Part shown: in pieces, positions 2,012-44,189 of the stretch | Layout of the letters: every line of letters begins with the position of its first letter | Numbering within the stretch: position 1 is the stretch's first letter | Assembly: GCA_951406725.2 (NCBI GenBank) | Contig: OX597821.1 | Span: 30,194,001-30,258,000 of the forward strand | Direction: 5' to 3' | Length of the DNA stretch: 64,000 nucleotides | From: Octopus vulgaris | Taxonomy: Eukaryota | Notes under the pieces: generated by a model | What the model saw: only the letters and a program-made list of their open reading frames with translations | The model's database searches: none | What the model was told of the DNA's origin: nothing | Position numbers and translations under genes: made by a program

Positions 2012-2186
2012 TCAACAATATAAAGGAATGACCCTGGTGGGCCATTCGTCTCACTAGAAAGAGCAGCCATACTCAAGCCACTAAATACAAGTAATTCAGA
2101 AACTACTATTTAGCGGTTTGAGTATGGCTGCTCTTTCTAGTGAGACGAATGGCCTACCAGGGTCTATCCTTTATATTGTTGAATTT
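2008..2186. repeat. ~80-bp inverted repeat (fold-back) inserted in a (TA)n array
   Basis: aaattcaacaatataaagga...ctaaata (2008-2087) pairs with tatttag...tcctttatattgttgaattt (2107-2186) with few mismatches. TA repeats on both sides. Confidence 0.9.
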
Positions 2187-2278
2187 ATATATATATATAT
2201 AGTCTGCGACTATTTTCTCTTCTCACTAGACCGCAAGTGCCGAAAAAATTTCTATTGAATTTTTTGCTACCCTTATAT

Positions 2279-2422
<144 letters not shown>

Positions 2423-2608
2423 TATATAATTAGGGCTTAGTAAAATAAATTACTTTGCCACATACTGAACTTAGTAGAAATAGCAGCCAAAAAAATTTTC
2501 TTAGCATTTCTACTACTTAAAGAAAATTTCTCTCAGATAATGTTTACTCTAGACAGCTCACGAAGGTTTGGGGGTAAATACAGAAAAATATCACAAGTAC
2601 ATAGATCG

Positions 2609-3452: not shown

Positions 3453-5865
3453 GTGATAGTCCAATGGATTGAGATTTGGGGAATTAGGAGGCCAAATGTT
3501 TGGAGTTATGTGGTCAGGAAAATTTTCAGCCATCCATTCCTGGGTTACTAGAGCCACGTTTGATAGTGCAGAGTCTTACTGAAACACATATGACCTTCCA
3601 ATGCATACAATGTCTATCCAGGGGTTAACAATTATTTCCAGGACTTCAATGTTAACTATAATCCCTATGGAAAGAAGTAAGTTGGCATCGTTTGTCCTTC
3701 ATTGCTGATAACCCCTAAAACATGACAGTTTCCGGAAATTGTGTATGCATAACACTGTACATAACCATCTGTCGCTTCTGTTAACTGTTTGAGAAAAACC
3801 AAATACTTCTGCTAGATTTTCAGTTTGTTTAAAGGCCTTTTAGATTTGATGTAGTGATTTTCTTTTGCTTTTTTCTGACAAATTGAGCTCTACTCATCAT
3901 ATAAAACTTATATCTGATACCACCGTGGACAACATTTCTGACTGTTCCTTCTGACACATGGGGATTGCAATTGGCCTCATGGATTTTCTGGGATTATAAA
4001 CAATGGTCTGTTGAACTTGCTGAATAAATTCAGGCGTTCTGATGATTTCAGAGCATTTAGAATGCGTTTTATGCTGGTGCAAGAGTCACGGCCCTGACGG
4101 CATACACCCACGGGTTATCAAAGCGTTGGCTCCGGTCATCTGCGAGCCCTTAACACGTCTATTCAATATGTCATTGGCGACGAGTGTTATACCTGCGGAC
4201 TGGAGAACAGCGATAATCTGCCCAATTTTCAAGAAAGGGAGCCGCGAAGACCCACTTAACTACCGACCGGTTTCCCTTACATCAATAATCAGCAAGATGT
4301 TCGAAACAATCCTTAAGAAAAGTATGATGCTCCACCTCCAAAACAGCCTTTATCTCTGATTCCCAACACGGCTTCGTGTCGAAGAGATCATGCTTGACCA
4401 ACTTACTGGTAATGGAAGAATTGGTGACGCGCATCCTCGATGATAGTGATGCTGTTGACATCGTTTTATTGGACTTTGCTAAAGCTTTTGACTCGGTAAA
4501 CCACCGCCTATTACTTGTCAAGCTTCAAGCATATAGTTTCCATCCGGATATTGTACGATGGGTTGGTGCCTTCCTCTCAGATCGCTCCTTCCAAGTCCAA
4601 GTTAATGGTTCGCGGTCCGACGTTTCCAGTGCGAGCAGTGGCGTGCCTCAAGGTTCAGTGCTTGGGGCCTTATTGTTCTTAGTCTTCATAAATGACTTGC
4701 CCGACGACCTTACGCCACACACCCTTCTATTTGCCGACGATGTCAAACTGGTCGCTCCTCGCGGTGATATAGAGGATCTTCGTCGATGCCTCCACCAAAT
4801 TTGGAGATTGTCTAACGAATGGGACCTGTGTCTGAACGTGTCAAAGTGCTGTCATCTGCCTGTTGACTCTCCTCCTGCAACTCAACTTGATTTCGAGCCG
4901 GGTCGTCTGCTGCTGGAGAGGACCGATCAGGTAAAGGACATGGGTATCTTGGTGGATTCCTCCTTTTCGCCTTCGGCCCAGTGCGTCCATGCTGCCAACA
5001 AAGCACTCGGAGTTCTGTTCTTGATTCGACAGTCATTCGGAATGCTCACAGCAGCCATATTCCTACCACTCTATATCACGCTGGTGAGACCCATATTGGA
5101 GTACGGGATTCAAGCCTCTTCTCCTTATCTCCTCAAAGACATACAGCATCTCGAAAGAGTCCAGAAGCTGGCTACCCGCATGGTTCTTGGTCTCAAGAAT
5201 TTGTCTTATGAAGAAAGGCTGAAGACGCTCGACCTTTATTCTCTAGAAAAATGACGACGCCGTGGTGATCTCATTCCTGCTCACAACATCATAAGCGGAA
5301 AGTGTAACCTCTCGAAAGAGCTGTTCTTCACTCCTGCTCCAGAGCGTCGGCTGTGGGGTCATTCCGAAAAGCTCTATCTGCGACGATTTCATCTCAATCG
5401 AAGGAGAGGGGCTTTCTCCGTCCGGGTTGCGGATCCGTGGAATAAACTGCCAGACGAGATGGTGAAGATGCCGACGACCGCTCGGTTCAAAGTCTCCCTT
5501 GACCACAAGTGGCCTGAACTCTTTACCTGAATACCACCCTGTACATAACTCCATGTCCCCCTACATGGCCTTGCTTTTTGCTTTTTGAGCCAAAAAATTA
5601 ACTAACTAACTAACTAACTAACTGTCTTCATTCTCTAGCTCCTTACAAACTTTGTAGATGAACGATCTGGCAAATTTTAACAATCGAGTTATTACTAAAT
5701 CGCTATGATCAGCTTTTATAACCACAAAAACAGCATGCCTCTTCATTTGTTGGGTAAGCTGAGGGTCTGCCATTATTGTTTTCTGTAACAAAGATTACAC
5801 AGAGCTGGCAAAATTTGCTCCAATGACCCAAAAGTGGAATGTCCTCAAATACCTTACGCACCATG
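3453..5865 (-). pseudogene. Decayed Tc1/mariner-superfamily (maT/DD37D-like) transposase, interrupted by a LINE at 4081-5623
   Basis: Manual minus-strand translation: MADPQLTQQMKRHAVF (ATG at 5773)...IRTPEFIQQVQQTI..NPRKSMR..VSEGTVRNVV...YVFQ*DSA...TQEWMAENFPDHITPNIWPPNSPNLNPLDY. The last motif is WPPNSPDLNP(L)DY-type. Contains stops and frameshifts. Confidence 0.85.
4081..5623 (+). mobile_element. 5'-truncated CR1-like LINE (ORF2 reverse transcriptase, disrupted) with (TAAC)n tail
   Basis: GPDGIHPRVIK, NYRPVSLTS, DFAKAFDSV, GVPQGSVLG, FADD motifs. One frameshift near 4350, in-frame TGA at 5252-5254. 3' tail (taac)n at ~5599-5623. Confidence 0.95.
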
Positions 5866-6101
5866 AATATATATATAAATTAGAAATATTGAATTTCTAA
5901 ATGTCTCAGAGAGACATAAGCGGTGGTGGAGCGGTATAGTGGTCGTATACTGTCAACTCAATGTGACAGTCCCGTAAGGGAATTACATCACCGCCATTTA
6001 GCACGAGGAAACATCGACGTCTCCTGTCGGCTTTGACACATTTTCTGTGTCCTTATATTTGCAAAGGGGAGGCGATCACACCCGGAGGCCGGGACAAGGC
6101 A

Positions 6102-6147
6102 CCTGAAGACATATGGTTCTGAGTGTATTGCTCATCGTCAGTTCAGG
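6102..6147 (-). ncRNA. Type I hammerhead ribozyme, GAAC core variant, GUC triplet
   Basis: Minus strand: ccugaa-CUGACGA-ugag caauaca cuca-GAAC-cauaug-UC-uucagg. Confidence 0.75.
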
Positions 6148-7332
6148 GTAGCCTGCCTCTTTCTCTTTATTATAGGCACAATGGCCTGACTGAAGAGGGG
6201 ACATAACAATACAATACAGGACATGGGGTACATATAATAAAAAAAAACATGATATGAAATGAATTATTAACAATGAATTAATGAAATGGCTTACGAGCCC
6301 CGCAAAGCTCGCAGTTTCATTAATATTACAGTTCTACTATCTGGGGTGTTCGTCCGTAATGTAAACGAGTAATTCATCTTGCTCTATAACTCCGGGTAAA
6401 CTGTCATATCGAACGTAATGCGATATGGTTACAACTGTATCTGAAAACAAATTTATTAATTTATTCACCGTATCTTTTTGGTGAGGGAGAGAGAAGAGGA
6501 GAGAACAGAAGAAAGAGAGGATAGAAAGCGAACACGGCTGGAATCACCACGCAAAGACCAAAAAAAAAAGAGAAAAAGGCTAAAAGGAAGGATGCTGACG
6601 AGACAGAGGATCGAACGCACGAAGGGAGAGATAGAGCAACTGAAGTGAGTGAAGGTTCAAGGTGGGAGGAAGCGATAAAATGGTCAACAAAAGTGGAAGA
6701 ATGTCTGAAAACATGCAAGGAAGGAGGAAGACCCAAAGGAAATATGTCAGAGCTGTAATATTGTACAGAAAAGATAAAGAAACTGAGAAAAAATTAGCAG
6801 TAACGAAGAATCTAACGAGAGTGAAATTGAACCCGAGTATGTATGATGACAGATCAAAGGCTGCAATAGTGGAAAAAGAGACGGTGGATAAATTAATAAA
6901 TTTGTTTTCAGATACAGTTGTAACCATATCGCATTACGTTCGATATGACAGTTTGCCCGGAGTTATAGAGCAAGATGAATTACTCGTTTACGTTACGGAT
7001 GAACTCCCAAGATAGTAGAACTGTAATATTAATGAAACTGCGAGCTTTGGGTGGCTCGTAAGACATTTCATATAATTCCTTGTTAATAATTCATTTCATT
7101 TCATATCATCCTTTTTATTTTTTATTTTTATTATATGTACCCCATGTCCTGTATTGTATTGTTATGTCCCCTCTTCAGTCAAGCCATTGTGCCTATGATA
7201 AAGAGAAAGAGGCAGGCGACCCTGAACAGTGTTTGTGTCGGTTTTTCGGATTTGCGGTTGTACGTTGTATTTGTTGATTGTTGTTGTTGAGAGCTGATGC
7301 GTCGTGTTGAATTGTTGAATTCTTTGTTGGGT

Positions 7333-7945
7333 ATGCAAGCCCAAACTTATGCGGGAGCAGCTGGCAAGGGCCTGGCTGCGAACGAATTACAGTTGGAAGA
7401 AATAATTATCGAGAAGGAAAATTTGAGGAAATACTACGACAGCTTCAAGAAGGAAGGAGACTGTCTGAGGGTTACACCACCTGAAGACGAAGTGAAAGAA
7501 GCGGAGAAAAAATCAAAACATACAGAACATGGAATGTGGTCTCAAAGAGAATAGAAGTAACAGAGGTGGAAGAGATTGAAAAATGTCTACAAGAAATTAA
7601 AGGAAGAACTACCTTCTACAATAGAGGTAGAAATACGCTACGGTAGACGTTCGCTTCGAAAATGAAAACGAAGCGAAAAGGAACGCCACGACAGTGTTGA
7701 GATCGGAAAAATGGGTTTTACTCCCTAATTATTGTGGAAAAAGAGCAGTGAGGATACGAATAAGCCAAATCCCTCCGGAGCTTGATACCGAAAGAATTGT
7801 AGCTGCAATAATCTACAACTGCAAGGAAATATTGTTTTCTGATACAGTTGTAACCATGAAGTATTACGTTCGATATGACAGTTTGCCCGGAGTTATAGAG
7901 CAAGATGAATTACTCGTTTACATTACGGACGAACATCCCAGATAA
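7333..7945 (+). pseudogene. Frameshifted non-LTR retrotransposon ORF1-like (RRM-type Gag-like) protein, probably internally deleted
   Basis: MQAQTYAGAA...EEIEKCLQEIKGRTTFYNRGRN/ATVDVRFENENEAKR...WVLLPNYCGKRAVRIRISQIPPELDTERIVAAI resembles Tx1/L1-type ORF1 N-termini (by-eye similarity). Confidence 0.55.
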
Positions 7946-8138
7946 TATAACTGTAATATAAATGAAACTGCGAGCTTTGGGGGCCTCGTAAGCCATTTCA
8001 TTAATTCATTGTTAATAATTAATTTCATTTCATATCATCTTTTTTTTTATTATATGTACCCCATGTCCTGTATTGTATTGTTATATCCCTCTTCAGTCAG
8101 GCCATTGTGCCTATAATAAAGAGAAAAGGCAGGCTACT

Positions 8139-8182
8139 CTGAACTGACGATGAGCAATACGCTCAGAAACATATGTTTTCAG
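8139..8182 (+). ncRNA. Type I hammerhead ribozyme, canonical core, GUU triplet, palindromic minimal stem III
   Basis: cugaa-CUGACGA-ugagc aauac gcuca-GAAA-c auau g-UU^-uucag. Predicted cleavage after 8177. Confidence 0.88.
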
Positions 8183-8343
8183 GTCCCTTGTCCCGGCTTG
8201 CAGGGGTGATCGCCTCCCCTTTGCAAATATAAGGCCACAGAAAATATGTCAAAGCCTACAGGAGACGTCGATGTTTCCTCGTGCTAAATGGCGGTGATGT
8301 AATTCCCTTACGGGACTGTCACATTGAGTTTCCAGTATACGAC

Positions 8344-8346
<3 letters not shown>

Positions 8347-8428
<82 letters not shown>
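8347..8428. repeat. (TA)n microsatellite
   Basis: Pure TA run. Confidence 0.95.
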
Positions 8429-14579: not shown

Positions 14580-15100
14580 TAAAGTTTCAGCTCAGAGCTG
14601 TGGTCGTTTTGCGCTACACTGTTATTACTAGGAGCCTCTTCTAATATTTGGCACTTGATGAAGAATGGAGTTTGATATAGCTACACTCATTTGCACCTCT
14701 TGCCATGAGGTAGGCTCATCTGGGACTCTCGACAGGAAGAGGTTCAGCTTTGATTTAAAAAACCCTACATCTACTTTGTGCAAGTTCCTCAGACTATTTG
14801 GGAGAATATTAAAAAGCTGTGGGCCCTTGAAACCCAGGTTGTTGCAGTAACTGGTCCTGAAGCGTGATGGCATTGCTGGGAACTTTGGCTCCATGCAGTG
14901 TCGTCCAGTTCTGGCATTGCTGTAGCTTTCAATGCCAAAATTTGGCACAATTCCTTCCAGGATCTTCCAGATATATATTACTGCATACCTCTCCCGTCTT
15001 CTCTCCAGGGAGTAGAGTCTTAGCTGTTTCAACCTTTCCCAGTAGCTGAGCTGTTGCAGAGAGACGATCTTCTTTGTGAATCTTCTCTGGATTACTTCAA
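14580..15100 (-). mobile_element. 3' fragment of a CR1-like LINE
   Basis: LRLYSLERRRERYAVIYIWKILEG...KGPQLFNILP...FKSKLNLFLSRVPDEP, followed by the 3' stem-loop cagctctgagctg-aaac. Confidence 0.9.
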
Positions 15101-16589
15101 CGTCCGCTGTTCATGTTTTCTTCGATATATTCATGTTTTCTTCAAGTTTTGCTTTCTATCAAGGTTTTTACTAGATACAATTTATGTATACCGCGGATTT
15201 CTCAAAGGTATTCTTAGAGTGACTGCAGCTGATTATAAAAAGGTATTAACTGTGCAGTAATACATACCACAGGATTCTGTGTGTTCTCCAGCATCTCATT
15301 TATATCTTTCAACACTAGAGCAGTGTTTATTTTTAATCATTATTGATATATATTATCAGCAGATGTTAGAGAGTTTTTCACTCATTATCTCTCACTGAAA
15401 GAAGCAATCGTTGCTAGGTTCACCCGAAACTCCTGCGGTTACATAAGAAAATGATATATATATATATGCTCGCTCACAACGTGTACATGCTAGTATACAC
15501 ATGTGTTTATGGCTTTGTGAGGAGTATTGTTCAGTAACAAGCATGTTTGTTAAACGATTTTGTTTTTATTTTAGTTCGCCTTTGTATTAAAGCAATTACA
15601 TTTTAATTAAAGTTAAATTAATTTTAAACTTCACGTTAAATTAGCAATCGTTACTCTCAGCATATTCAGAGATATTTCAATTAAAAAATAGCAATGTTAA
15701 ATCATGTTCTCTTCTTGATTACAAGACTGGATTTTTTGCAATAGAGGCGACAATTTCTACGCACACATACACACACAAACAAACACACACATACACACAC
15801 ACAAACACTCACAAATACACACACACACACATATATACATATATATATTTATTTATATTTATACACATTTATTTCCCAGCTAACTATTTCCCGGTAAATA
15901 ACTGTTGTCATACCAATATATTGGAATAAAATGCTAAATCATCACCCCTAACTCCATACCACGTTGCTCCACCATCACTATAGCCAATAACAGGAACAAC
16001 AACGACAACAACAATTATTTTTAGACGATGTAATGAAACAGTGAAAATGTGTAGTGATTTGAGTATCGAACTTTTGGAAATAGCTTCGATTTTCGAAACG
16101 CGCAGTGAGCAGTATGCTCGCGTAATGTACCTCCTTTTATATTGTTTCTATTTACTCAATTGAAAATAAGTAGCAATGGCATCCTATGGAGATGGTGTTT
16201 TATCCGTCTGAATTGTTGCCGTCCAGTTCAATTCTTTCATTTCCACTTACTTCCCCTCTGGTATAATCAACACAAGCTCCTATCTAACGGGCCTATCTCG
16301 AGTCAAAAATGTTCACTTTCACTATAAGGAATAACCATAGATACAAGATTTTTTTAATTGTATTTATTGCCGATAACAAACTGATAAGAAAACTATACTG
16401 ATCTGTGAACTATCACGGGGGATCAAATATTGCCATGGATAAATTGTTTAGGCTGTTCAAGAAATAGATTTCTCATTGTTATTTCTATTAATAACTTATG
16501 CACCAATGTTATAAATCGAGATTTCTTTTGTTCTGAATTAATTGCTTGTTGACAGATTTAGCAATGGAATCAAACATTTGGCTACATAA

Positions 16590-25449: not shown

Positions 25450-28335
25450 AAACTTAGATAAAACTTAGATAAACTTAGATATGTTTCGACCAGAGATTGG
25501 TCCAGGCCATGTCTAACTTAATAGCACCACCTGATAGGATTATTCGAATCCTGTTTAAGTCAAGTTTTGTTCAAGTAGTCAGTTCTTGTTGGGTGAGTTG
25601 TATCCAGTTTTGTTCAAGTAGTGAGTTCTTGTTGGGTGAGTTGTATCCAATTATGGGTGGCTTGTCTGGTATTCTTTGAAGGAATCTATCCAGACTCTGT
25701 TTGAAGTTGATGGGATCCTTTTCCTCTTTGATCTCCCTCGGGACAATGTTAAATAGGGCAGGGCCTGTTGAGGAAAAGAAATTATGTTGCAGTGTACATG
25801 TATGTTGTGATCTTGAATTTGGCAGGGGACGTATAGCCCGTGGTCCAAGTCTCGGATGAACCTTGAAGCTAATGTTTAGGTCGTTTGGGCAAAGTTGGCG
25901 GTATATTTTCCACATCGTACAAATGATGTACCGCTCACGGCGACGCTGGAGGGAGTAAAGTTTCAAGGCTTTAAGGCGATCCCAATAGTCGAGAGCAGCC
26001 ATGCCTTCAATTTGTTTAGTGAGTGCCCTCTGGGGTGACTCAATTCTGGAGATGTTTTGTCTTGTGTGAGGAGACCACAGTGGGCAGCAGTATTCAAGGT
26101 GTGGCCGTACAAAGGATGAAAAAAGTGGTATGATGACACCTTGTTCTCTGGACCGGAAAGTTCTTAAGATCCAGGAACTCATCCTACGAGCTGTATCGAC
26201 CTTCTTGTTGATGTGTGCACTCCAACTGAGATCGTCATCAACAATTACACCCAGGTCTCTGATATTGTTAGAGGCTGTGAGCGGTTCCCCTGAAGGAAGA
26301 GAGTATGGTTGTTTTAGTGAGGAATTTCTTCCAAAATGCATCAGCTCAAATTTTCCCTCATTCAGTTGCATTTTGTTTCTGTCTGCCCATTGACTCACAG
26401 CATATAGGTCAGACTGGAGTTGAGTTCGGTCTGCTTCTTCATTGACGATTTGCTGGAGCTTAGTGTCATCAGCAAATATTTTCACTTTGCAGTGATGTAC
26501 GACACTGGAAAGGTCGTTTACATAAATTATGAAGAGTAGCGGACCCAAAACAGTTCCCTGGGGAACACCGCTGGTGACTTTTGCTGGGTTTGAGTGGACT
26601 CCATCAACTACAACATGTTGTGTTCTATTCGCTAGGAAATACTGAATCCAGTGTAGAACTTTTCCACGGATTCCAAAATTTGCCAATTTTGAGAGTAGGA
26701 TGTTATGGTCTACCCTGTCGAACGCTTTACTGAAGTCAAGGTATATGACGTCAGAGTTCGAACCTGTTCCCAAGGCTTTGAGTACATCTTCAATGTGGTG
26801 TAAGAGCTGTGTTAGACAGTCCCTGCCACAGCGAAAGCCATGTTGATTTGAATTCAGGAGTTTGTGGGTCTCCAGGAAGTCAGCTATCCTTGATCTTAAC
26901 ACTCTTTCAAACACTTTAATGATGTGGGAGGTGAGTGAGATTGGGCGATAGTTGACTGCGAGGGATCTGTTTCCCTGTTTGAAAACCGGGATGACCGACT
27001 GGGATAGAAACTTTTTCGGTATATAACCTGCGTCTAACGAGTTTCTCCAGAGGTTGGTCAGAGGGACTGCAAGTTGATATCTACATTCCTTCAGGAGACT
27101 GGCGGGAAATCTATCAGGGCCTACAGCGGAGTAATGTTTGACCTCATTTATTGCTGCTACGATGTCGGTGGCAGTGAAGGTTATGTCTGCGATTTTGTGT
27201 TGGGAGTCAGCTTCGTTCGTTTCCCTCACATCAATATCAGTGGGAACACTGAAGACAGAGCAATATTGTTTCTGCAGTATTTCTGCCATTTCTTTAGCAT
27301 CGTGTTGGAGAATGCCGTTTTCATCAATCAATGGCCCAATAAGTGAGACAGTGGTTCTATGCTTATTTGCATAAGAATAGAACACTTTTGGGTTCTGTTT
27401 GATGTTTTTGATTACCCATTGTTCCTCCACAGCTCTTTGATTTTCAATGGAGGTTTTCATGTTAGTCTGCAGATGAAGTTTTTCCAGCTCTAGTCTTTTC
27501 ATTGTTGTTGAATGTGGATGTTGCGTGTGGGAATATTTTAATTGGTTGATTTTTTTGTTGAGTCTTTTGATGCGCCTGATGAGTGTTTTTTTCTTTTTAG
27601 GGAGCCGGTTTCTGTTTGTGTTAGTAGATTTCTTGGGAGCGTGTTTAGAGCATGTGTCGGTGACAATGGTTTCAAAGTGCTGCCACGCGGTCTCAATATG
27701 AGGGGAATTGAGAGTAAAAGACCAGTCGATGGAAGACAGATCCTTTCTGATTGTTCCCCAGTCCGCTTTGTGGAAATTTATGTTGTCAAATGGGTGCCAT
27801 GGAGTGGGATTGGCTGGTTTGGTTTTTATACGTCGGGAATTAAGATTGCAGAGTACCATGTCGTGGTCTGAGAGGAGAGTTTTTTCGACTGAAATGCTGT
27901 GAACGTAGCTAGAGTGATTGGTCAGTACCAGATCCAAGATCGTTTTATTCTGTCTCGTTGGTTCAAGCACTAGCTGAGTCAGGAAATACTCATCCATCAG
28001 ATTAAAGAGCAGTTCTGCTGCTGCCCTATCTGATGTAGAGCACTTGCCCAACTTCGGAGTATTTGTGGGCCAGTTCACATGAGGGAGGTTAAAATCACCC
28101 ATCACTATTATGTTTCCGGAGTGGTACTTCCGAAGGAAGGACTTGACTTTGCTAAGGCACTCTTCAAAGTACTTTAGAGGTGCCTGGGGAGGCCTGTAAA
28201 GACCAACAATGGTTATGTCCTTGGCTTTGTTGTATACTGATACCGATTCACAGTAGCCATTGGAAAATGTGTCCTTGGCATCAAGTGAAAAGGAGTCATG
28301 GATAAAGATGGCTGTCCCTCCCTTATTTCGGTCTG
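25449..28335 (-). mobile_element. Young 5'-truncated CR1-like LINE inserted in (TA)n
   Basis: Uninterrupted APE+RT frame, conserved 3' stem-loop, tail of (ATCTAAGTTT)n-type repeats at 25449-25480, TA arrays at both ends. Confidence 0.95.
25571..28335 (-). CDS. LINE ORF2 (partial APE endonuclease + reverse transcriptase), ~920 codons open, lacking its native N-terminus
   Basis: DR..GG.AI, YRPP, MGDFN, LDLVLT, SDH (APE). NYRPISLTS, QHGFR, DFSKAFD, GVPQGTVLGP, FADD (RT). The first ~80 aa of the listed 1000-aa ORF are microsatellite/SINE read-through. Confidence 0.9.
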
Positions 28336-28356
28336 TATATATATATATATATATAT

Positions 28357-28440
28357 TGTGGCTCTGTGGTATGAAATTTACCTCCCAGCCCCATGGTTCC
28401 AAGTTCAGTCCTAGCCCGTGGTCTCGGACTGCCCTAGGAC
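28357..28440 (+). mobile_element. SINE head fragment
   Basis: gtggctctgtggtatgaaatttacctcccagccccatggttccaagttcagtcc, the reverse complement of the head at ~43200-43258. Confidence 0.6.
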
Positions 28441-28500
28441 TTATGAAAGTATATACATATATATACATACATACATGCACACACACGCACACACACACAT

Positions 28501-28531
<31 letters not shown>

Positions 28532-29218
28532 GATTAATTTAATAAAAACCGATAGAGCTACTAATAGTCTCATACTTTTAAGATACTTTAACTAGGCATA
28601 TTTATGAAATACGCCATATATCCATATGTCTCCAAGCAATCTTCCAGGCTATGTTTATGCGTTATAAATATATTAAAAATAAGGACGCGTGACAGGCTGA
28701 AAATAAGTAGAGAAAAACCTCTCCCCCCAAAAAGTAACAAACAAAAAACAAACCAAAAAAACACGTGAGGAAGGTTGACGGAAAAAATGGAACGTGAATA
28801 TGGAAGCGAAATCAAGAAAACATAGATCCCCGGTGTCCCCCGATTACAGAACCCGCATTAAATACAGCTGCTATAGTTCAAAATAACAGAAACTATGTCA
28901 AAATCTGCGAGACAACTCAATCTGGAGCGGTTGTGTCCTTCATTCGATAACCTGTCCCTGTTTTTACAACTGCTAAAAATTTCTGATCTGTAATTAAGCA
29001 GTGTTGGAAATGTTGGATCTATGAAGAATAAGAGATCATGCTGCAACGCCATAAGTTGCATTTGTTAAATCCATTATCATGTGTCTGGATTCTACTGCGA
29101 TTCTCCACTTAATTGTACATCGATGATTATTCTATATTGGCCACCAGCATACCAAAGCCTAGCGTGAAGACTTCGTAATGGGAAACTGAAAAGATCCAGT
29201 CGTATATATATATATATA

Positions 29219-35074: not shown

Positions 35075-36578
<1,504 letters not shown>

Positions 36579-37088
36579 CAATATATATATATATACATAC
36601 ATACTCACACATATACATACAGGCAAGTACACAAGTATACTGAAATAGATATATTCGTGCTTCCATGTCTACATACATACATACATATATGCCGACTTCC
36701 TGAACTACATGCGTATATAAAAGAATGCCTAAATCAATTTACACACACCCACTTGCGCGTACGTCTATACGTGCATACACGTATACATTCCTCATTAATC
36801 TTTAGAAGCTCAGTTTGAAAATCTCAGAAAGAACATGCATGATCACTGGATTGCAGCTACACGTGATCAATGGCTCTATTTGAGTATGCGTGACATTCTA
36901 GGAATTTAGTAGGTAATAATAGCATATACAGACCTATGAAAATTCACGTACCCAATGACATCCAATCCATGTACAAGTGTGTGTATATGTATGTCTAGAT
37001 ATATATATATATATCTATATATATATATATATATATATAGATATATAGATATATCAGTCGCCATGATACATCGTTACCCACTACACCC

Positions 37089-43269: not shown

Positions 43270-44070
43270 AAATTTATTTTGGGGATGTAAGTGTATATAT
43301 TCCAAGACATGCTGGTTTACGGCTGTGACCCAATTTGCAAGTAACCTTTCAACTTTCCCTGAAACGAGAAGCCAAAATGCGGCTACGTTGAATGCCATGA
43401 GCGTTAGTTTCTTTTCAAAACCGTTCAACGTGAAGTGCTCAGTTCTCCCCTCCTGTACGTATTGGCTCTTGAGCCTTTGCTGCGGAGGCTGGAGGGACCG
43501 GGGGTATCCTGCGCGTTTTCGGTTATAGGAGGGTGGTCACGGCGTTTACGGATGACATCACCATCATCGTATCCCGGGTAAATCACCTACGGATTCTGGG
43601 TGAAGCCATCAAGGACGACGGGATGTGGCAGGAGCAAAAGTTAGCCGAGAAAGAGAATCAGCTTACAATTCGGCACCTGGAGAGGCAAGTCAATGCCTTC
43701 CAACAGCATCGTAGGGCATAATACGGAAAGGCCAGTAAAAATGCTAGGAGTTTGGTTTGAACCAAACCCCCAGATAGAGAAGAATTGGGGCGAGGAGGCT
43801 AGCAAGGTGACTTACCTAATTCAGACCTGGTCTGAGCGGTGGTTATCCTTGAAAGAGAAGGCGAAGGTGGCAGAGCTATTTATCGCTTCTGTGATTACCT
43901 ACCGCCTAACCGTCGCGCCTTGTCCCGTTCATTGGCTGAACATGCTGGAACGGCTCTTTCTCCGCTTTTTGTGGAAGGGTAAAGGTCGGCTTGTGAAACG
44001 TTCTGTCTGCTGCCAACACCCTCTAAAGGGTTGGCTAAGGATGCCTTGGATATCGATGTGCAAATTACCG
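43270..44070 (+). mobile_element. Tx1/L1-clade LINE RT fragment, frameshifted
   Basis: AFTDDITIIV, PVKMLGVWF, WSERWLSLK, YRLTV.PCP, RFLWKGK..LVKR....P.KG.L.MP motifs. Confidence 0.85.
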
Positions 44071-44142
44071 CTCCATCGGAAGGATCGATCCTTGGCGTTT
44101 TACTCAGAGAAATTCGACATCTTCCTGGATATCATATCCCCT

Positions 44143-44189
<47 letters not shown>

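Follow-up and report, generated by a model that had tools for sequence, protein, structure and literature searches.

Drosophila HeT-A encodes only a Gag protein, is organised in head-to-tail arrays and is mobilised in trans. HAL1 is a non-autonomous LINE derivative that encodes ORF1 only, as outlined in PMC5753468. In the Tx1 clade, represented by Keno, Tx1 and Tx1-Mar with its SINEU, APE-RT LINEs target snRNA genes or other transposons, and their non-autonomous partners use the same target (PMC4494074). Non-LTR retrozymes are tandemly arranged units of 150–400 nt that bear a type I hammerhead and no ORF (PMC7229834), and have been proposed to be non-autonomous derivatives of PLEs (bioRxiv 10.64898/2026.07.22.740005). 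PLEs for their part leave a pattern of inverted truncated copy, one-sided extension and TA target (PMC8557442), and Terminons carry hammerheads between their ORFs (PMC6431247).

The window analysed here is a 64,000-nt stretch of the Octopus vulgaris genome (contig OX597821.1, positions 30,194,001 to 30,258,000). Judged from its sequence, the locus at window positions 5,866–8,428 contains a repeated element in two copies, both broken, whose only coding capacity is for a putative RNA-binding ORF1 protein. We consider it highly probable that the two copies are nested 5′ of the hammerhead of a retrozyme, and that they represent a non-autonomous relative of Tx1-type LINEs, on which such a LINE likely acts in trans. 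The hammerhead is a property of the target, not of the ORF1 element.

Architecture and history of the locus

The window holds three related repeats that are 88–93% identical, two direct and one inverted. A first-pass annotation had described this inverted-plus-tandem layout; its three repeats are real, but the inverted one reaches ~5877 rather than 5935. The observation that the inserts between the repeats, X and Y, both read into a common C-terminal peptide is borne out by sequence comparison. A hammerhead had also been placed ~190 nt past the stop: a type I core does start 199 nt after the Y stop, but none follows X, because the middle repeat stops at 7227, ahead of the hammerhead core. Nor are X and Y alternative inserts, as had been supposed. 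Both represent parts of a single ORF, of which Y covers the 5′ third and X the 3′ quarter, and 16 of the 19 other loci found with Y show the order Y, ~310–360 nt, X, and then repeat/UTR. Compared with a full-length sister copy, the Y copy of the window lacks ~716 nt including the zinc knuckle, and X proves to be the 3′ part of another copy, itself truncated; the window ORF itself is broken and frameshifted. A splice acceptor at the start of Y was considered, and abandoned after a target-site duplication was recognised there. In window coordinates, the features are:

5877..6479, minus strand: inverted, 5′-truncated composite copy, holding the last ORF codons (6474–6343), 3′ UTR, poly(A) signal, target site, hammerhead and retrozyme body, and ending in a 56-nt extension that finishes at a short TA run and recurs on many free retrozyme copies
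6102..6147, minus strand: type I hammerhead of the inverted retrozyme, first helix III pair broken, predicted inactive
6480..7209, plus strand: upstream ORF1-only copy, 5′-truncated (X plus 3′ UTR; residues ~320–460; stop 7013–7015), sister of the inverted copy
7210..7227, plus strand: 5′ copy of the 18-nt target-site duplication, with 2 mismatches
7228..8126, plus strand: second ORF1-only copy (Y), with 5′ UTR, start codon 7333, frameshifts, ~716-nt internal deletion at 7826/7827, stop 7943–7945, poly(A) signal 8115–8120 and short tail
8127..8144, plus strand: 3′ copy of the 18-nt target-site duplication
8138..8183 (core from 8144), plus strand: type I hammerhead of the right-hand copy, with two-pair helix III and palindromic loop
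8127..8347, plus strand: rest of the family A retrozyme, sister of the retrozyme part of the inverted copy
to ~8428, plus strand: (TA)n run terminating the right-hand retrozyme

Other LINE sequences lie in the window as well. A truncated LINE with an RT match at 4024–5620 (plus strand) ends in a tetranucleotide repeat ~250 nt to the left of the locus and is unrelated to it. A 1006-aa open frame at 25571–28591 (minus strand), with endonuclease- and RT-like motifs, belongs to a near-intact LINE of a different type, of which related fragments occur at 14631–15110 and 35656–36738.

The hammerheads of the window were recognised by eye from their core motifs, and Rfam reported none in the window. 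Over 19 copies the three helices are 95.6% paired, versus 18–43% in slid controls. These 19 copies, all of one young family, show no covariation, with no both-side changes and the shuffle control not exceeded, and the single-strand folding energy is no better than that of shuffles (z −1.4 to +0.5). With Rfam negative and folding unremarkable, the ribozyme call rests on the core motifs and the conserved pairing. Both window hammerheads carry a core change, in the inverted one the broken helix III pair; at cleavage position 8177 the right-hand one reads U, in contrast to the C of 16 of 18 other copies. Non-canonical cores, changed at positions 3 and 8 and of uncertain activity, were also seen in some retrozyme families (L192, L194, L198, L210).

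Across 30 fetched loci, the hammerhead repeat is a ~355-nt unit that is copied both in tandem and in inverted orientation, with its ends at TA runs; in 25 of the 30, some of which overlap, no ORF match lies within 1.5 kb. Its length within the 150–400 nt range, tandem unit, type I hammerhead and lack of an ORF are those of a non-LTR retrozyme, and on sequence grounds it is a free-standing one, separate from the ORF element. The earlier proposal that the hammerhead is part of the element and forms its 3′ end is not supported, given that the retrozyme is free-standing and the element is flanked by its own duplications. One retrozyme (L002, ~2100–2500, minus strand) contains a SINE copy, at a site other than that of the ORF element.

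Shared derived bases shed light on the order of events. The UTR of the inverted copy shares such bases with the X UTR and not with the Y UTR, two of them missing from all 10 other aligned copies. Its retrozyme part has four derived bases in common with the terminal retrozyme, two of which are absent from 17 of 17 others. The inverted copy, X and the terminal retrozyme thus appear to descend from one template. Going by this architecture, an element-plus-retrozyme composite was likely recopied in the window by Penelope-type machinery. The composite would have been copied into a TA microsatellite together with an inverted, truncated 3′ copy, in the PLE style, and Y would have entered later, in front of the hammerhead, leaving the 18-nt duplication. 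Inverted and tandem structures at microsatellites are seen in the window and in many free retrozymes, and element tails are found on both strands at three independent places among all fetched loci. In the fetched loci, no PLE with a terminal repeat matching the retrozyme was found, nor a PLE ORF joined to a retrozyme; PLE-like fragments noticed by eye elsewhere in the genome have neither a Pfam match nor a link to retrozymes. The first-pass annotation had offered, as an alternative, that a PLE repeat captured an ORF1. This reverses the direction, since it was the ORF1 element that inserted into the repeat, but the composite does appear to retain a trace of PLE-type copying at the locus. Among the fetched loci, L078:332–1027 and L056:3088–4261 (both minus strand) resemble by eye PLE RT thumb, GIY-YIG and RT core, with no Pfam match, and an ORF at L061:1094–1870 (plus strand) matches the Schlafen AlbA_2 domain (E 1.9e-8).

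The ORF1-only family and its insertion sites

The intact element is ~1.6 kb long and contains one ORF of ~460 aa, whose product is predicted to comprise tandem RRMs and one CCHC knuckle. A protein search of the genome, with 150 hits scored among 8,959 candidates, recovered open frames of at least 440 aa in 31 of the 150. For a diverged subfamily, 29,117 candidates yielded 90 scored hits, many of them intact and in arrays of 1.7–1.8 kb. An ORF2 was found within 700 nt of the ORF end in none of the 70 distinct ends with enough flank. The first-pass annotation had suspected an RT-less element encoding only an RNA-binding ORF1; with the protein hits, the missing ORF2 and the predicted RRM and CCHC domains, such an element is seen to exist as a large family. 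The fold that it anticipated, RRM plus zinc knuckle, also emerges from prediction. Foldseek matched the predicted model (mean pLDDT 58.7) to tandem-RRM proteins at E ~1e-4, and the CCHC knuckle was matched weakly, below the Pfam cut-off, in 18 of 18 aligned members. The proposed comparison between copies gave a dN/dS of 0.09–0.23 over the RRM–CCHC core in 11 of 12 pairs, the remaining pair being saturated; values so far below 1 indicate that the ORF is kept under purifying selection.

Named relatives of the ORF are proteins of Octopus species and Argonauta, and an Octopus bimaculoides protein falls in the ORF1-only clade, apart from the LINE ORF1s. LINE ORF1s, the ORF1 family of the window and a second ORF1-only group form three supported clades, although the tree leaves the links between them unsettled. 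An atlas match at 0.90 with ZCCHC3-like RBD clusters is no more than a lead. Contigs from presumed-RNA runs cover parts of the stretch; start, strand and level are not readable from them. Arrays of several ORF1-only subfamilies are held in a larger repeat that looks Helitron-like by eye (L051, L052, L057, L206, L207).

The ORF1-only element adjoins the hammerhead on its 5′ side, at a homologous place, in at least five diverged retrozyme families. Its 45 distinct 3′ ends comprise 29 ahead of a hammerhead, seven ahead of another copy, with a target remnant between, and nine ahead of neither; of these nine, inspection by eye put four ahead of a degenerate hammerhead and three within unrelated DNA. 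Genome-wide, a strict junction pattern yielded 37 exact junctions at varied positions, versus 1 control match, so the junction is not peculiar to this locus, a point on which the first-pass annotation had made its case depend. Target-site duplications of 9–21 nt, with a score of at least 9, flank 19 of the 24 copies with both ends (control scores: 95th percentile 6, maximum 9), and no duplication was seen in 3 of the 24. The copies have their own 3′ UTR and poly(A) signal, and the 3′ end lies just past the latter; those outside retrozymes (L016, L049) stop within ~6 nt of it. Since the poly(A) signal also marks where copies in unrelated DNA stop, it is not the hammerhead that generates the 3′ end for integration. 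Related ORF1-only subfamilies form arrays that lack a hammerhead altogether, and one of 30 U2 loci (L239) has a full ORF1-only copy against the start of the gene. Insertion offsets are spread from about −3 to +14.

These distributions bear on two other accounts of the locus. Conceivably, it could be one RT-less element of the PLE family, whose pseudo-LTR holds the ORF end and an RNA-processing hammerhead, and of which free retrozymes are deleted derivatives. The inverted and tandem layout of the window with its TA ends, the hammerhead behind 29 of the 45 3′ ends, and composite inversions at three places would all follow from such an element. Its duplications should then not vary in length and position as they do, nor should one ORF subfamily be found in retrozymes of different families as well as in U2 (L239) and unrelated DNA; the same sites are moreover used by an APE-RT LINE, and related ORF1-only arrays do without hammerheads. 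We regard this account as very improbable, and the PLE-family model as largely refuted. Still less credit can be given to the idea that the ORF1-only copies are dead, 3′-deleted LINEs, passively amplified inside other repeats. Some young, identical arrays share their upstream flank, which suggests copying within a larger repeat, but passive passengers would hardly have a 3′ UTR, poly(A) signal and duplications of their own and a dN/dS well under 1, or fall with an Octopus bimaculoides protein in a clade apart from LINE ORF1s.

The partner LINE and the choice of target

A candidate partner for the ORF1-only element came from the junction search, in which one of 30 junction loci held an RT. There, a truncated LINE occupies the site used by the ORF1-only element and is flanked by a perfect 16-nt duplication. 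A search via the shared 3′ tail led to a tRNA-like SINE (30 of 30 loci) and to ORF1-only copies, for which no RT-like ORF was noticed in the output examined for 30 loci. ORF2 of the LINE is intact, at 1130 aa or more, in ~30 of 117 scored matches and comprises APE, RT and a C-terminal zinc finger, and its ORF1 contains a CCHC knuckle. In 20 hand-picked loci, this ORF1 is 28–33% identical to the ORF1-only proteins (E ~1e-29 to 1e-39 for the long ORFs). By its domain set and the sole ORF2 homologue named TX1 (32% identical), the LINE is likely of Tx1 type.

The LINE 3′ end was placed in the same 20 loci, which came from the top matches, four of them chosen for adjoining ORF1-only matches. It lies ahead of a retrozyme hammerhead in 13 of these 20 hand-picked loci, compared with the more than 20% of flanks in one repeat that Kojima's rule asks for. 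The others precede U2 snRNA (2), another repeat (2) or an ORF1-only copy followed by a retrozyme (1), lie in the interior of an array (1), or are unassignable (1). Duplications of single LINE copies are mostly 16–18 nt, and near-identical copies are inserted at U2 and in two retrozyme families. In 3 of 30 U2 loci (of 56 U2 matches), a LINE tail abuts the gene start, and mixed arrays of LINE and ORF1-only copies exist. The homologous ORF1, the same retrozyme sites and the 5′ end of U2 genes make this LINE the likely mobiliser. Common targets, duplication length and tail likeness by eye thus suggest that a Tx1-type APE-RT LINE, and not a PLE or Terminon RT, likely mobilises the ORF1-only element in trans. 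The true partner may be another Tx1 subfamily, since the LINE and window ORF1s fall in separate clades with an unsettled link.

Several further observations concern these LINEs and their surroundings. A degenerate piece in the window (43400–44145, plus strand) resembles the partner LINE ORF2 and terminates at a TA run. U2 array units on one contig (L219–L226, L237) have remnants of decayed LINE ORF1s in their intergenic parts, and a LINE begins ~300 nt past one U2 start; together these suggest a long association with U2 arrays. One LINE subfamily, too, sits in the Helitron-like repeat, a second target class that has no upstream box. The tRNA-like SINE (L101–L130) is very abundant and often forms 184-nt tandem arrays; its last 23 nt (22,726 exact matches) are common to some ORF1-only subfamilies, so the SINE may use a related LINE.

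Retrozymes and snRNA genes have a promoter-like box in common. In the zone from −66 to −46, U1 and U2 genes have the same most frequent hexamer, present in 10 of the 14 U1 loci and in 13 of the 19 U2 zones that are distinct (background 0.5%). Of 11 retrozyme variants, eight have the box by eye between −50 and −59, and the other three have it with 1–2 changes. With this box near −57 common to retrozymes, U1 and U2 genes, retrozymes are likely transcribed from an snRNA-type promoter, which inserts borrow. The LINEs inserted at U2 have a short leader of retrozyme origin, from which we infer that their RNA began inside a retrozyme. Precedents include the snRNA-type promoter reported for newt satellite 2 (cited in PMC2220036) and the flank-driven transcription proposed for SINEU (PMC4494074).

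A possible cycle would start with the retrozyme being transcribed from its snRNA-type promoter, which an insert within approximately the first 35 nt of the transcript would borrow. The element would then make ORF1 protein, which would package its own RNA, ending at its own poly(A) signal. This RNA would be integrated by target-primed reverse transcription, with the LINE supplying endonuclease and RT. The duplication would restore the target, leading to head-to-tail arrays.

How the target is chosen admits two readings, neither reaching an even chance. The one that comes close to it is recognition by sequence, in which the APE of each subfamily would recognise a short stretch of DNA near the hammerhead by its sequence or shape, together with 5′-junction base pairing of a target-derived leader, as in other Tx1 families. 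Switches of target are frequent among Tx1 families, and the choice has been attributed to the endonuclease (PMC4494074). Sequence reading would also account for subfamily-specific offsets and for the late Y insertion in the window, where the element's own 3′ UTR, with no box, lies upstream of the target. The nick positions across retrozyme families and U2, however, have no common sequence visible, and near-identical LINE copies enter both U2 and two retrozyme families. Such differing targets could be understood if the insertion were instead steered by position, via an snRNA-type promoter complex or an open start site, a possibility that we entertain tentatively. LINE duplications span about −3 to +14 of both U2 and the inferred retrozyme start, and the same upstream hexamer marks U1, U2 and, by eye, most retrozyme variants. 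Against steering by position stand that same box-less Y insertion, a LINE subfamily that targets a box-less repeat, the variable ORF1-only offsets, the doubling of the box as one arm of a hairpin in retrozymes, and the lack of any element tail at U1 upstream regions in 14 loci. An extended version, in which the LINE and its Gag-only passengers home positionally on snRNA-type start sites, retrozymes act as decoy U2 and promoter donors, and composites ride on PLE machinery, is rather unlikely as a whole; if true, the system would consist of three tiers of parasites able to spread by two independent routes.

Relation to described systems

The combination of element and retrozyme, and the target class, were not found in the literature searched, going by titles and the opening lines of abstracts; the families may already be catalogued in Repbase, Dfam, subscription journals or supplements. 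The locus adds ribozyme retrozymes as a new target class for site-specific LINEs, as well as an ORF1-only lineage beyond L1 that is maintained by selection, a natural test of the reasons for retaining ORF1 alone. It also suggests a mode of transcription for invertebrate retrozymes. Near-identical copies at U2 and several retrozymes, with matching offsets, make steering of a LINE endonuclease by a promoter complex testable, and whether such a complex or sequence does the steering is relevant to safe-harbour gene insertion.

Among Gag-only elements, HeT-A is telomeric and Jockey-related, whereas the octopus ORF1-only family is interstitial and Tx1-related. The target of the partner LINE is a hammerhead retrozyme and the extreme 5′ end of U2 (about −3 to +14); the Keno site is further inside U2, at about +37. 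Its passenger encodes a protein, while the Tx1-Mar passenger, SINEU, is a SINE. Here, retrozymes provide the landing sites, and at a small number of loci a LINE-derived ORF travels with them. The inverted 5′-truncated copy, partial tandem, one-sided tail and TA targets of the window are PLE-like (PMC8557442). Unlike PLEs or Terminons, the element has no PLE RT, GIY-YIG or telomeric repeats, it has its own duplications and poly(A) signal, and the hammerhead is not in a terminal repeat of its own.

The closest likeness is to HAL1: a single ORF homologous to LINE ORF1, no ORF2, its own 3′ end, and independent retrotransposition with target-site duplications (19 of 24 copies). HAL1 proper derives from mammalian L1, whereas the octopus ORF1 is CCHC-bearing and its named relatives are octopod. 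HAL1 is not described as site-specific in PMC5753468, whereas the octopus element is targeted, array-forming and tied to Tx1, with an ORF1 of the RRM–RRM–CCHC type. The parts are thus of known kinds, a HAL1-like element, a target-specific Tx1 LINE and a retrozyme, and the ORF1-only element is likely a HAL1-like Tx1 derivative.
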